A stretch of DNA of 63,856 nucleotides. Origin: Thermodesulfobacteriota bacterium (GTDB taxonomy: Bacteria; Desulfobacterota; Desulfobulbia; Desulfobulbales; BM004). Numbering within the stretch: the first letter of the stretch is position 1; each line of letters starts with the position of its first letter. The position numbers and the translations under genes are program-made. The stretch spans positions 1-63,856 of the forward strand of contig JBHPCH010000001.1 in assembly GCA_042576125.1 (NCBI GenBank), read 5' to 3'. A model generated the notes under the pieces. It was given only the letters and a program-made list of their open reading frames with translations, was not told where the DNA came from and did not search any database. Positions 28,081-44,778 of this stretch are shown here, in pieces.

Positions 28081-28178
28081 TCTTGAATCTACCAAGATTT
28101 CATCTCGATTATAGCTCTCGACAAATCTGTCTGTCTCAAAAGTGAATAAATAATAGATTGAAAGGATGCTAGGATGTT

Positions 28179-28424
28179 GGCCATTTCACGCAGCCGAGCA
28201 GTGGAAAAATAACCGGAATAGTGCGAGAGGTAAGCGGAACCATGAAATGGCGTAGACTCCGACTGTTTGAGCACCCCTGCGGGGCATAAACTCCGCGAGT
28301 CTCGCAGCGCCCGGTTATTTTGAGTAGCGCAGGGCATCCCGTTTCAAGCGGGACAAGTGACCGGCTGCACTTTCTTCGCCGCTTTGCTGCTGGTTCGTTT
28401 CTTTATGCAAGTAAAGAATTGAAC
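28179..28424 (-). repeat. Structured intergenic repeat, copy A
   Basis: The reverse complement aligns end-to-end with copies B and C. It carries a 31-32 nt insertion (about 28229-28260) relative to C. Confidence 0.8.
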
Positions 28425-37160: not shown

Positions 37161-37371
37161 TGTTCATTTTCTTTGCTTGTCCAAAGAAAACGAACCAGCA
37201 GTGAAGCGGCGAAAGAAAAGACAGCCTCTCACTCGCCGTTTCACTGCTGGCCTTCGGCTACTCTGCGCTGCTTGAAAAATTCGGGCGCTGAAAAACTCGC
37301 CATAATAAATGGCTCAGACAGTTTCAGCGCTATTCCGATTTTTTCTACACTGCTCGACTGCGTGAAATGGC
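37161..37371 (+). repeat. Structured intergenic repeat, copy B
   Basis: The first 66 nt match copy C at 65 positions. The element ends with CTGCTCGACTGCGTGAAATGGC. Confidence 0.8.
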
Positions 37372-37453
37372 AAAAACAAAAACTATGCCTCCTCTTGGTT
37401 TTCCCTGTTGAATACCAAAGGTTGTCTTATAACCAAACATTTTTAAAATGGCT

Positions 37454-38224
37454 TTATTGTTTGGACTCCAGCAGGTCCTGCCAATCCTGTTGAAGTATTT
37501 TTAGGGCGTCGTAGTTAGTGGGATCAAGATGCATGGGTGTTATGGAAATTTTGTTTACACTTATGGCAGCCGAATCAGTGTCTTCACCTGCATCAAATGA
37601 CGGGGTACCTCCGCCTATCCAGTAATGTTTTCGTCCCCACGGGTCGCAAGTCTCCTTGATAGCATCTTCATAAAGCCTCCTGCCTCTCCTGGTAAATGCC
37701 ACCCCGGCAATTTTGTCTGTAGTCGTGTTTGGAACATTGACATTGAGCAGGGTGTCCTGCGGCAGCCCTCTCTCCAGTATAAGGGCGGCAAGTTTCACCC
37801 CAAAGTCAGCTGCAGTTTCATAATAAAGAGGCGCTTCGTCTGGAAGGGCCAGGGACAGAGCCATTGACGGTATACCGAGCATGGTAGCCTCAATGGCTGC
37901 CGATACCGTTCCTGAGTAGCTCACATCATCGCCCAGGTTGGCACCCGGATTAATTCCTGAAATCAAAAGGTCCGGTTTTTCGGTCAGTATTTTACCAATA
38001 CCAATTGTGACGCAATCCGTTGGTGTGCCGTCAATGGAGTAGATATCCTTTTCGAGTTCCCTGACCCGCAGGGGTCTGTTCATGGTTAATGAGTGGGAGG
38101 CCGCACTGTTGTCATGGACCGGGGCGATAATGACTGTACTGCCTAATTTTTGAACTTTGCTGAAAAGGATTTGCAGTCCTGGGGCGTGAATTCCATCATC
38201 GTTAGTTAGCAGTATTTTTATCAT
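37454..38224 (-). CDS. surE: 5'/3'-nucleotidase SurE
   Basis: 256 aa with the signature N-terminus MIKILLTNDDGIHAPGL. Confidence 0.9.
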   Translation of the reverse strand: MIKILLTNDDGIHAPGLQILFSKVQKLGSTVIIAPVHDNSAASHSLTMNRPLRVRELEKDIYSIDGTPTDCVTIGIGKILTEKPDLLISGINPGANLGDDVSYSGTVSAAIEATMLGIPSMALSLALPDEAPLYYETAADFGVKLAALILERGLPQDTLLNVNVPNTTTDKIAGVAFTRRGRRLYEDAIKETCDPWGRKHYWIGGGTPSFDAGEDTDSAAISVNKISITPMHLDPTNYDALKILQQDWQDLLESKQ

Positions 38225-42486: not shown

Positions 42487-42629
42487 GTTCCGGGTTTAGC
42501 AAATAGATCTCTTTACCTTTTGGGGGAAGCCAGGCAAAAGCCTTTGGTTTTGTCTCATTCATTACAGTACAGCCTCATGGTAACTGAAATCACTTTACAC
42601 ATGGCTGACTGGACCTAACTATAAATTTT

Positions 42630-42979
42630 GGAGTGGGCGCATGATCGCTGGCCTTTTGGGACCAGAGGAAAGTCCGAACTTCACAGGGCAGGGTGGTTCG
42701 TAACGCGAACTCCGAGTGATCGGAGGAAAGTGCCACAGAAAACATACCGCCCGTTTTTGGCGGGTAAGGGTGAAATGGTGAGGTAAGAGCTCACCGCTTT
42801 CATGGCGACATGAAAGGCAGGGTAAACCCCACCCGAAGCAAGATCAAATAGGGAAACGTTTGAGGGCTGCCCGTCTGATGTTTCCGGGTAGATCGCTGGA
42901 GGTGCCGGGTGACCGGCATCCAAGATAAATGATCATGGTCCCCATGCGGGATACAGAATTCGGCTTACAGCCCACTCCA
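42630..42979 (+). ncRNA. rnpB: RNase P RNA, bacterial type A
   Basis: P1 GGAGTGGGC / GCCCACTCC, the universally conserved GAGGAAAGTCCG and ACAGAA..CGGCTTA(C), plus GGTAAGGGTGAAA and AGCAAG..CAAATAGG blocks in canonical order. Confidence 0.95.
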
Positions 42980-42988
42980 ATTTTTTAT

Positions 42989-43203
42989 TGTTCATTTTCT
43001 TTGCTTGTCCAAAGAAAACGAACCAGCAGCGAAGCGGCGAAAGAAAAGACAGCCGATCACTTATCCGCCTAAGGCGGATTCCCTGCGCTGCTCAAAATAA
43101 CCGGGCGCTGTGAAACTCGCGAAGTTTATGCCCCGCAGGGGTACTCAAACAGTCCTCGCGCTGTTCCGGTTATTTCTGCGCTGCTCGGTTGCGTGAAATG
43201 GCG
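42989..43203 (+). repeat. Structured intergenic repeat, copy C (starts 9 nt after rnpB)
   Basis: The reference copy: 5' hairpin at 42996-43017, variable hairpin at 43063-43079, a long central hairpin capped by GCCCCGCAGGGG, and a 3' end ...CTGCTCGGTTGCGTGAAATGGC. Confidence 0.8.
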
Positions 43204-43275
43204 CAAAAAGTAAAAACCTAAAGTTTATATAATATTTTAAGGTTATTAACCTTTAATTTTTAGCCTTGCGTATAA

Positions 43276-44487
43276 ATGAATCCCTCCAAAGTAGCCGCAA
43301 TCATACCAGCCGCAGGAAGCGGCATCCGTATGGGGTTGCCTTCCCCAAAGCAGTTTTTCGAACTGGACGGGATCCCCATCCTCATCCGTACACTCCAGGT
43401 ATTTCAGCAGGCAGATGCAGTAGGGTGTATCGTTGTGGTTGTTCCACAGGACAGTTGTTCTCAGGTTGCTGAGCTGGTGCAGAAATACGAACTTGCCAAG
43501 GTGTTCAAAGTTGTTGCCGGGGGCGAATATCGCCAAGATTCCGTCCTCTCAGGCCTTGAAGTCTTGCCCCGGGAAATAGAACTTGTACTGGTCCATGATG
43601 GGGTCAGGCCCTTTGTCCCTGTTTCTGTTATTGAAAACTGCATTGATGTAGCAGAAAAAGAAGGGGCAGCAATGGCAGCAATACCTGTCAAGGATACCCT
43701 GAAGGCAGTTTTGCCAGATGGAGTTATTGAACATACCATTGACAGAACAGGGGTCTGGCAGGCACAGACACCACAGGCTGCAAGAGTTTCACTTTTAAAG
43801 AAAGCTTTTGCCGGTGCAACAGAGAATAAAAGTTTTATTGCCACAGACGAGGCATCATTACTTGAACGCATCAATATCCCTGTAAAGGTGGTTGAGGGGT
43901 CGGAGAAAAACATAAAAATAACCAGGCCTGAAGATCTCTTTCTTGCCCAAGCCATACTTATGGAAAGCAGGGGCGACAAAAATGTTCTGGATGGAAGTCG
44001 GGACTATCGTATTGGCTATGGATATGATGCGCATACTCTGATCGATGGGAGACCTCTCATATTAGGGGGCACCACAGTTTCGCATGCCAGGGGATTGCTG
44101 GGTCATTCAGATGCAGACGTGCTGCTCCATGCCCTGTGTGATGCCATGCTCGGAGCTGTTGCCATGGGGGATATAGGGCAGCATTTCCCAGATACTGACA
44201 AAAAATATAAAGATATCAGTAGTTTGAAAATTCTGAAAGCTGTCTACGGTTTGGTAGAAGAGTTTGGCTATATGTTGCATAATGCAGATATAACTGTGGT
44301 GGCTCAGAAACCCAAACTGGCTCCCTACTTAGAGGACATGACAAAGAACATTGCAGCTGAAATAGGAACCGATCAGGACAATATTAACATAAAGGCCACG
44401 ACCACTGAAGGCATGGGGTTTGAGGGAAGAGAGGAAGGCATATCAGCCTATGCTGTTGTACTTCTTAAAAAAAGCAATCAGTCTTAA
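43276..44487 (+). CDS. ispDF: Bifunctional IspD/IspF (MEP cytidylyltransferase / MEcPP synthase)
   Basis: 403 aa. The N-terminal IspD motif is AAIIPAAGSGIRMG; the C-terminal IspF motif is RIGYGYDAHTL...GHSDADVLLHA. Confidence 0.95.
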   Translation: MNPSKVAAIIPAAGSGIRMGLPSPKQFFELDGIPILIRTLQVFQQADAVGCIVVVVPQDSCSQVAELVQKYELAKVFKVVAGGEYRQDSVLSGLEVLPREIELVLVHDGVRPFVPVSVIENCIDVAEKEGAAMAAIPVKDTLKAVLPDGVIEHTIDRTGVWQAQTPQAARVSLLKKAFAGATENKSFIATDEASLLERINIPVKVVEGSEKNIKITRPEDLFLAQAILMESRGDKNVLDGSRDYRIGYGYDAHTLIDGRPLILGGTTVSHARGLLGHSDADVLLHALCDAMLGAVAMGDIGQHFPDTDKKYKDISSLKILKAVYGLVEEFGYMLHNADITVVAQKPKLAPYLEDMTKNIAAEIGTDQDNINIKATTTEGMGFEGREEGISAYAVVLLKKSNQS

Positions 44488-44580
44488 GCGGTCATCTTTC
44501 AGAAAAAATATCCATAAACTCTACTATGTTAAGCAAGACAGAATAGGATTTAAAAGAAACTTAAATTGTTTTAAGGGTTT

Positions 44581-44778
44581 TGTCATTTTACGTAGCCGAG
44601 CAGCGGAGTAAAAAGTAGATAAACGACTCGGCGGAGCAACGCGACTTTCCGAGGCGTCTGCTTTTTGTGAGCAGCACAGGGTAGTCCCGCTGTGCGGGAC
44701 CAAGTGAACGGCTGCCTTTTCTTTGGTTCGTTTCTTTGCACCCTTAAAACAGGGCATGAAGGCAAGCAAAGAAATGAA
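44581..44778 (-). repeat. Structured intergenic repeat, copy D (diverged, with internal deletion/insertion)
   Basis: The reverse complement shares the 5' hairpin arms (TTTCTTTGC/GCAAAGAAA), the variable hairpin GTCCCGC-N3-GCGGGAC, and the 3' end CTGCTCGGCTACGTAAAATGAC. Confidence 0.7.

Follow-up and report, generated by a model that had tools for sequence, protein, structure and literature searches.

The window analysed here, 63,856 nucleotides (nt) of contig JBHPCH010000001.1 from the Thermodesulfobacteriota bacterium assembly GCA_042576125.1, carries copies A to D of an interspersed, structured, non-coding repeat of ~190-250 nt whose multi-helix fold is under selection. The fold is built from an outer helix (P2) that surrounds two hairpins, the long P4/P5 and the hypervariable P3, followed by a terminal hairpin (P1), and the end of the resulting tail is probably a three-stranded helix, as judged from covariation. 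Copy C spans 42989-43215, with the minus strand as the likely folded strand (nhmmer and BLAST family matches), and the stretch described in an earlier sequence-only reading is the end of this one copy. Copy B (37161-37385, minus strand, nhmmer) lies just past the terminator-like hairpin of its upstream gene. Copies A (28177-28424, nhmmer; likely folded strand the window plus strand) and D (44580-44778, plus strand) have the inverted orientation, and D holds a 26-nt mini-hairpin inside its P1 loop at 44740-44765. The source genome is a 2.5-Mb metagenome-assembled genome (MAG) that is 72.7% complete with 43.8% G+C. Iterated nhmmer searches give 90 matches in it, 76 of them full length (182-348 nt), and all copies are intergenic and occur in both orientations. 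In this genome the copies, which are old and diverse, share a median pairwise identity of 65%, and only five pairs exceed 90%. No Rfam family matches them among 4227 families searched, either across the window at gathering score or in copy C at E <= 10.

Selection on a multi-helix fold

The sequence-only reading had argued from compensatory stem changes between copies that secondary structure is under selection. This was upheld with 63 distinct copies from the source genome and its relatives, aligned with structure-blind MAFFT as a conservative choice and scored over 48 pairs that cover P1, P2, P3 and the pseudoknot as well as P4 in its outer and inner parts. Stem cells pair in 88.4% of cases against 75.0 +/- 0.4% in shuffles, and both sides have changed in 369 cells against 108 +/- 8.5, neither value being reached in any of 500 shuffles; the covariation score is 0.354 compared with 0.145 when shuffled. 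As copies from one genome are related, these shuffle tests overstate significance. When the partners are instead slid by 1-3 columns, which retains relatedness, pairing drops to 34-46% and the score to 0.04-0.08. Double changes are found in 35 of the 48 pairs, including 7/7 of P3 and 11/11 of the P4 outer helix, where one pair is, for example, UA 28 times, AU 22 times and CG 4 times. RNAalifold independently predicts 24 pairs, 20 of which show compensatory changes. The outer helix P2 has four pairs with 9 double changes each and covaries between subfamilies, and its sequences in other phyla are entirely different while pairing is retained. Because the larger set of copies shows compensation beyond chance, the argument for structure survives.

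The anatomy is given here for copy C, with all features assigned to the minus strand; consensus orientation is the plus strand of copies B and C, and the folded strand is taken as its complement. The terminal hairpin P1 (42990-43023) reads GTTC-A-TTTTCTTTG, loop CTTGTC, CAAAGAAAA-C-GAAC, and the consensus is GTTC-A-TTTTCTTTG / CTTGCC / CAAAGAAAA-C-GAAC. One arm is homopyrimidine and the other homopurine, the closing pair is GC in 46 copies of the alignment, AU in 15 and GU in 1, and the arms gain or lose 4 nt in step through coordinated indels on both. An optional 16-nt insert CAGCAGCGAAGCGGCG (43024-43039), present in the alignments in copies B, C and a few others, precedes the tract R' (43040-43047), a candidate third strand that reads AAAGAAAA on the plus strand and UUUUCUUU on the folded strand and mirrors the P1 purine arm with a 1-nt offset. 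The pseudoknot strand GACA (43048-43051) follows, with its partner TGTC at 43006-43009 in the P1 loop. The P2 strand GCCGATCAC (43052-43060) closes the body of the element by pairing with GTGAAATGGC (43193-43202), which on the likely RNA strand lies at the fold's 5' end. Within the body, P3 (43063-43079; ATCCGCC-TAA-GGCGGAT) is identified by covariation and forms in almost all copies, by way of more than 15 different stem sequences. A junction motif conserved in the alignments, CCCTGCGCTGCTC (43081-43093), is repeated as CTGCGCTGCTCGG (43177-43189) on the opposite side of P4, and the CCCT and CTCGG of these motifs are kept in other phyla too. P4 itself (43094-43176) has outer arms AAAATAACCGG / CCGGTTATTT and conserved internal strands GAAACTCGC and CTCAAACAGTCC, and its tip P5 (43121-43144) is occupied in copy C by a mini-hairpin module, GAAGTTTATGCCCC-GCA-GGGGTAC. 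The consensus order is P1, a short linker, the purine tract R' (AAAAGAAAG), GGCA, GCCGTTCAC, P3, junction, P4 and junction. GGCA pairs with TGCC of the P1 loop, GCCGTTCAC pairs as P2 with the 3'-terminal GTGAAATGGC to enclose the body, and P4 keeps the internal strands GAAACTCGC and GCTCAGACAGTCC beneath the variable tip P5.

All strings and coordinates quoted in the sequence-only reading for copies A-D were correct when the window was re-read. The hairpin that it placed at the 5' end is TTTCTTTGCTTGTCCAAAGAAA in copy C (42996-43017) and TTCTTTA-TGCAAG-TAAAGAA in copy A (28399-28418), where A:T stands in place of G:C on both arms, while copy D has the arms TTTCTTTGC / GCAAAGAAA (44731-44739 / 44766-44774) around a 26-nt insert containing CCCT-TAAAAC-AGGG. 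The variable hairpin, ATCCGCC-TAA-GGCGGAT in copy C (43063-43079), is TCCCG-N7-CGGGA in copy A (28337-28353), GTCCCGC-N3-GCGGGAC in copy D (44684-44700) and GCC-TTC-GGC in copy B, and the arms of the long hairpin are AAATAACCGG/CCGGTTATTT in copy C and AAAAATTCGG/CCGATTTTTT in copy B. Two of its descriptions require amendment. The '5' hairpin' is a hairpin, but it is most likely 3'-terminal, because the folded strand most likely complements the strand quoted for B and C. A set of hairpins is also an incomplete account of the element, as a long-range closing helix, a pseudoknot and a mirror third strand are present in addition.

The tail and the folded strand

Within the 63-copy alignment, the pseudoknot helix is paired in 95.6% of cells with double changes in three of its four pairs (UA 60; GC 61 / AU 1; CG 56 / UA 6; CG 45 / AU 11). 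Its variants include TGCC:GGCA, TGCA:TGCA, TGTC:GACA and TGTA:TACA, together with CGCC:GGCG in other families or distant relatives. The P1 pyrimidine arm, the P1 purine arm and R' are equal in length within each variant (9/9/9, 8/8/8, 7/7/7, 5/5/5 and 4/4/4), and in asymmetric variants the G of R' occupies the mirror-image position of the purine-arm G. Purine arm and R' are, for instance, AAAGAAAA and AAAAGAAA in one class, AAAAGAAA and AAAGAAAA in the Desulfobacterota locus L165, AAAGAAAAA and AAAAAGAAA in another class, and AAAAGAAGAAG and AAGAAAA in the type 2 subfamily, where the purine arm is also given as AAAAGAAG... Perfect mirror matches occur in 17 of 18 informative classes, whereas 5000 trials with R' shuffled among the classes average 9.8 and never exceed 15 (P < 2e-4). 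Since R' mirrors the homopurine arm of P1, as a triplex requires, a triple helix is indicated and the end of the tail probably has three strands.

Read on the complement strand, the order of the tail is UGCC(C), UUUCUUUU, GG, UUCG-UUUUCUUUG, GGCAAG and CAAAGAAAA-UGAA. This order suggests an H-type pseudoknot in which a U-rich loop 1 would lie in the deep groove, parallel to the purine strand, a geometry that the telomerase and SAM-II pseudoknots show, and the covariation of the putative third strand fits U.A-U and C+.G-C triples in parallel register. A Watson-Crick switch, with the third tract pairing to the pyrimidine arm instead, was considered and rejected. It could form a 7-bp core in symmetric variants but only 5 bp in type 2, and it leaves the equal tract lengths and the mirrored G without explanation.

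Four features point to the strand complementary to the consensus as the one that most likely folds; for copies B and C this is the minus strand of the window. The complementary (minus) strand forms the more stable structure in 63 of 76 copies, by 4.9 kcal/mol on average (Wilcoxon p = 7e-9). Interior one-sided transitions that stay paired as G.U on the minus strand number 20 vs 8 in P4 (p = 0.036) and 7 vs 0 in P3. The Rfam model RF01731 matches the complement strand in the tail-sharing relatives L165 and L183, and a pyrimidine third strand in the major groove is possible on the complement strand only. With the minus strand taken as the folded strand, the predicted triplex falls at the 3' end of the element. 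The wobble asymmetry fixes the strand and not its chemistry, because G.T pairs are tolerated in DNA hairpins.

Relatives, distribution and genomic behaviour

The element is present in 22 of 41 relatives and in 9 of 24 genera, a patchy distribution, and the named GTDB records with full copies are Desulfobulbaceae, Desulfobulbia or 'Deltaproteobacteria' MAGs. In a phylum-wide sample, 11 of 301 genomes match, mostly over positions 7-52 only and at 83-98% identity; beyond the tail these matches retain the architecture while their sequences differ. An exact 40-nt module pattern is found in 3 of 401 sampled Pseudomonadota genomes (reversed-pattern control, 0) and has 0 matches in 2.9 million viral contigs. 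BLAST finds the module at 6 places in pILYOP01 of Ilyobacter polytropus (Fusobacteriota) and in Pseudoalteromonas sp. NC201, P. piscicida and Aeromonas caviae. The 46-nt tail is 85-98% identical across Desulfobacterota, Pseudomonadota and Fusobacteriota (loci L157-L171, L173-L181, L182 and L183).

These relatives provide a link to the TwoAYGGAY motif (RF01731), described as a probable RNA that is not cis-regulatory and has no known function (Weinberg et al. 2010, PMC2864571). Locus L183 of Pseudoalteromonas sp. NC201 contains a full-length RF01731 match of 56.7 bits, above the gathering score of 43, which ends exactly at UGCC-UUUU where the tail starts. Locus L165 of Desulfobacterota combines AUGGAG and AUGGAU hairpin loops with the tail and matches RF01731 on the same strand at 31.3 bits. 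A further locus, L184, is a bona fide member at 45.7 bits with a plain GC hairpin in place of the tail. The copies described here have the outer helix enclosing two hairpins on the Rfam strand (P2 around P4 and P3), and directly after the outer helix they have the tail of UGCC(C), U-tract and P1 hairpin with loop GGCA. RF01731 itself is unmatched in the window at gathering score, in copy C at E <= 10 and in 19 copy-bearing loci at E <= 5, and AYGGAY occurs on neither strand of the consensus, where the P3 loops are variable 3-nt loops and the P4/P5 tips are variable. On sequence comparison, then, the family has its layout and tail in common with those TwoAYGGAY elements that bear the tail; its loops are not of the AYGGAY type and the model does not match it. 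Term counts for the 2026 Minerva preprint (10.64898/2026.09.22.753630) are 52 for TwoAYGGAY, 12 for 'pseudoknot' and 0 each for 'triplex', 'triple helix' and 'transposon'. On pNC201, two partial TwoAYGGAY matches restricted to the core hairpins (L183, 784-851 and 1662-1728; 34.1 and 43.1 bits) flank the tail-bearing copy within ~1 kb, so TwoAYGGAY-type elements cluster locally in NC201.

Evidence for mobility comes from the site after the RNase P RNA gene (rnpB; 42629-42983, Rfam match), 6 nt beyond which copy C begins. The site carries an intact copy in the source genome and a decayed copy in G009, and the orthologous site is empty in G006, G003, G005 and G004, where 10-95 nt separate rnpB from the next gene compared with ~290 nt. 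As the site is filled in some species of one genus and empty in others, copies have been gained or lost, which we read as mobility. Downstream of copy C lie ~70 nt of A+T-rich DNA before the next gene starts at 43276, and in G009 AACCTTT is repeated in a short tandem array beyond the decayed copy. One flank of the copies is rich in T and the other has an A-run, which suggests a T-run / A-run junction as the target, and 34 of the 90 elements have another element within 60 nt. No target-site duplication was detected, the longest common substring of the flanks as direct repeats being 4.83 against 4.68 +/- 0.13 in controls, and their inverted complementarity (4.87 against 5.01 in controls) gives no closing helix from the flanks. 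Terminal inverted repeats are not visible in the alignments, and a search of the source genome for a longer, autonomous version, in the form of partial matches flanking an open reading frame (ORF), found none.

Candidate mobilising enzymes do not track the element. Absence of a gene from an incomplete MAG has limited weight, with the complete relative G010 as the exception. Y1 transposase (PF01797) is absent from the copy-bearing genomes G000 (the source genome), G002, G003, G005, G011 and G014, of which G005 is 93% and G014 95% complete, and is present in many copy-free genomes. No sequence is shared between the repeat and the IS200-like element that G010 carries in six copies. TnpB (PF07282), expected for an IS200/IS605 or TnpB omega-RNA remnant, was found in 0 of 13 carriers, including G010, with a control that was positive in 8 of 14 known genomes. 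A retroelement such as a retron, group II intron or DRT non-coding RNA would be expected to co-occur with a reverse transcriptase gene; the reverse transcriptase domain RVT_1, scored as presence per genome, is absent from the source genome and G014 and occurs 1-2 times in the other carriers tested.

The family also includes several subfamilies and nested modules. The genome contains at least 35 mini-hairpin modules of the form (A)GTTTATRCCC(C)-loop-(G)GGGTR, each 20-28 nt long, with examples in the window at 43121-43144, 44740-44765 and 28272-28291. Inside copies there are 24, at five internal positions (the P1 loop, the junction, the P5 tip and others) and always in host orientation; 11 lie outside copies, in part as tandem units. 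The module resembles a very small, nested insertion element. The type 2 subfamily (TTCTTTTG...CAAAAGAAGAAGC AAGAAAAGGGCACCC, with the 3' end GCTCAGCGGGACAGAATGGG) is inverted beside a type-1 copy in 13 of 14 cases, head-to-head or tail-to-tail and 14-35 nt apart, sometimes in arrays of three (source genome C5:4046-4726, C23:19590-20198 and C44:565-918). An additional inverted repeat, AGTAATATATTGTTTT ... AAAACATTTTATTACT, encloses one subfamily (C153:1601-1800, C3:47669-47847 and C44:5210-5388; compare C55:14150-14326), which lies in a further repeated context with ..CCAAATATTAA before it and GTGGACACAAAGACCC.. after it. In C55 the inner element is inverted with respect to this outer context, which suggests either an inversion or insertion in two orientations into a palindromic target. 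Optional sequences, each at a fixed position, include the insert CAGCAGCGAAGCGGCG between P1 and R' (43024-43039 and 37196-37211), which is complementary to the junction motif CGCTGCTG, the insert TCGCCGTTTCACTGCTGG before P3 (37232-37249) and a ~35-nt module GTCGGAGTCTACGCC...CTTACCTCTCGC in the P4 3' arm (28228-28260). Mechanically called ORFs of 81-106 codons cross repeat copies at 28089-28337 (minus), 37173-37493 (plus) and 44524-44769 (minus), and ORFs through copies are likely to be annotated as hypothetical proteins by simple gene callers.

Explanations and known systems

We lean towards a reading that joins three proposals, with modest confidence in their conjunction: the element acts as an RNA from the complement strand, it ends in a triple-helix pseudoknot tail that serves as a 3' cap or for docking, and it spreads selfishly. 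The functional form would be a single strand, most likely RNA, complementary to the consensus. Its body would be an outer helix around two hairpins in the TwoAYGGAY layout, and the U-rich loop 1 (UUUCUUUU) would lie in the P1 major groove and form 4-9 U.A-U and C+.G-C triples. The tail would most likely be a compact 3'-end cap against 3'-to-5' exonucleases, or alternatively a docking site for a partner. The family may be a selfish or semi-selfish repeat that spreads inside and across genomes by a mechanism for which the element does not itself code, in which case lineages that lose the fold would stop spreading or decay. A bolder proposal, which we regard as tentative and on balance unlikely, is that these are cross-phylum self-propagating RNAs with a triplex-sealed 3' end that multiply without a transposase or reverse transcriptase that is dedicated to them or encoded in the element. 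If true, it would imply an unrecognised RNA- or single-stranded DNA-mediated mobility or a new class of abundant structural RNA.

Several observations weigh against the capped, selfishly spreading RNA. Conserved G/T juxtapositions at helix ends could be wobbles that favour the other strand. This plus-strand wobble interpretation was rejected, as the helix-end G/T positions are probably unpaired junction bases at which relatives show C/T or A/T. P1 is followed by an A-run and not a U-run. The evidence for the putative triplex is covariation, and the P1 extension (GUUC/GAAC) would leave a linker of 1-2 nt, which is sterically tight for a triplex; deep-groove crossings by short linkers occur in known H-type pseudoknots. 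Mobility is drawn from one orthologous site, the patchy distribution and decayed copies, and no mobilising enzyme was found among the partners searched (Y1, TnpB and reverse transcriptase). Scans for promoters and terminators gave nothing that rose above chance or recurred consistently among the copies. Orientation bias towards neighbouring genes is not significant and weak at best, 43 of 70 copies lying downstream of a co-oriented gene on the favoured strand as scored with a crude ORF caller that also reports spurious ORFs through the elements.

The element might instead function as folded single-stranded DNA, a non-autonomous transposon moved by a strand-specific enzyme supplied in trans, either of HUH/Y1 type or another structure-reading recombinase. 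It would then resemble repetitive extragenic palindromic (REP) sequences and REPINs with their RAYT transposases, or the palindrome-associated transposable elements (PATEs) of IS200/IS605, and its mirror repeat would adopt a triplex of the purine-motif or H-DNA-like kind. We consider this improbable, while giving it more credence than the remaining alternatives. It is consistent with the lack of target-site duplications and terminal inverted repeats, with intergenic copies in both orientations, with insertion polymorphism and with clusters and alternating-orientation doublets as in bacterial interspersed mosaic elements (BIMEs), here 13/14 of type 2 and 34/90 within 60 nt. It would also accommodate the wobble data, as G.T is tolerated in DNA hairpins, and purine-motif triplexes are stable in DNA. 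However, Y1_Tnp is missing from the copy-rich G005, G014, G002, G003 and G011, the IS200-like element of G010 is unrelated and TnpB is found in none of the 13 carriers. The combination of three-way junction, pseudoknot and triplex exceeds any known transposase hairpin substrate in elaborateness, and relatives hold a catalogued RNA motif, TwoAYGGAY, in the same frame.

Somewhat less credible is a host-beneficial role, with the copies as trans-acting small RNAs or protein sponges of the CsrB/RsmZ type multiplied by duplication, in which the repeated junction motif GAGCAGCGCAG or AYGGAY loops would bind protein and the triplex tail would stabilise the RNA. Conserved single-stranded motifs do lie beside P4 in all subfamilies and across phyla, structure is kept despite the 65% median identity, and in bona fide TwoAYGGAY relatives the hairpin loops resemble ANGGA, a type of site to which CsrA-type proteins bind. 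Yet ~90 copies in roughly 3 Mb is beyond any known regulatory small RNA family, and the copies are patchy among genera and have no conserved promoter or terminator. Orthologous sites are empty in sister species, with one orthologous copy decayed, and hairpin modules are nested at several internal positions. The same covariation data bear on an account that dispenses with structural selection altogether and attributes matched arms to hairpin-templated repair, template switching or subfamily founders. Quasi-palindrome correction can match hairpin arms without selection and is thus a selection-free source of such arms, and the relatedness of copies overstates shuffle significance. This neutral account is nevertheless strongly disfavoured. 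Sliding the partners keeps relatedness, yet collapses the score from 0.354; long-range pairs covary too (P2 across ~150 nt and the pseudoknot); templated repair cannot produce a mirror repeat; the wobble asymmetry is strand-specific; and the same architecture recurs with unrelated helix sequences in three phyla.

Bacterial repeats are mostly short palindromes or transposon stumps. The element described here has five covarying helices, a pseudoknot, the signature of a triplex with 4-9 triples and ~90 copies per genome. It is similar to REP/BIME sequences, REPINs and structured MITEs (miniature inverted-repeat transposable elements) such as ERIC and Correia in having many intergenic copies in both orientations, in alternating doublets and arrays, in being insertion-polymorphic and in keeping structure within the repeat. 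Unlike REP/REPIN sequences and MITEs, it is ~200 nt long with a multi-helix junction, a pseudoknot and a predicted triplex, rather than a palindrome of 20-40 nt or a single long hairpin. In contrast to REP/REPIN sequences, it is not tracked by a RAYT or Y1 gene, and unlike MITEs it lacks terminal inverted repeats and target-site duplications.

The closest resemblance in layout is to TwoAYGGAY, which has the same arrangement on the same strand, the junction CCCT and CTCGG and, in NC201 and L165, the same tail. The copies here nevertheless fail the RF01731 model even at E <= 5, a long arm with an internal loop and tip (P4/P5) replaces one hairpin, the P3 loop is a variable 3-nt loop and there are ~90 copies per genome. 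The Rfam model stops before the putative triplex tail. The element ties an orphan motif to a much larger uncatalogued superfamily with a conserved part that lies outside the Rfam model. Cultured carriers exist in Pseudoalteromonas sp. NC201, P. piscicida, Aeromonas caviae and Ilyobacter polytropus DSM 2926, which makes these questions directly testable.

For the tail itself, the nearest parallels are the H-type triplex pseudoknots of telomerase RNA, SAM-II and preQ1-II. The order of segments is equivalent (S1a, U-rich loop 1, S2a, S1b, short loop 3, S2b), loop 1 would run parallel to the stem 2 purine strand, and the covariation is of the U.A-U and C+.G-C kind. The triplex here is predicted, and it would be longer (up to 9 triples) and located at the end of a multicopy repeat, whereas the tail has no known ligand or reverse transcriptase context. 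The 3'-end triple helices of the element for nuclear expression (ENE) and MALAT1 type, reportedly described by Tycowski and Steitz and said to include those of plant and fungal transposable-element RNAs, offer a second comparison. In them, too, the 3' end of an RNA, non-coding or from a mobile element, combines a U-rich Hoogsteen strand, a U-rich Watson-Crick strand and an A-rich tract, the run of U.A-U triples is broken by a single C+.G-C, and 3'-end protection is a proposed role. To our knowledge, no 3'-end triple-helix cap has been described before in bacteria. An ENE clamps a separate A-rich tail in a U-rich internal loop, whereas in the bacterial element a hairpin contributes the A-tract as its 3' arm, and the third strand would be supplied from upstream through the pseudoknot. 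If the tail is a triple-helix cap, it would represent a bacterial counterpart of the ENE/MALAT1 stability elements found in RNAs of eukaryotes and viruses, and a compact, portable RNA-stabilising module.

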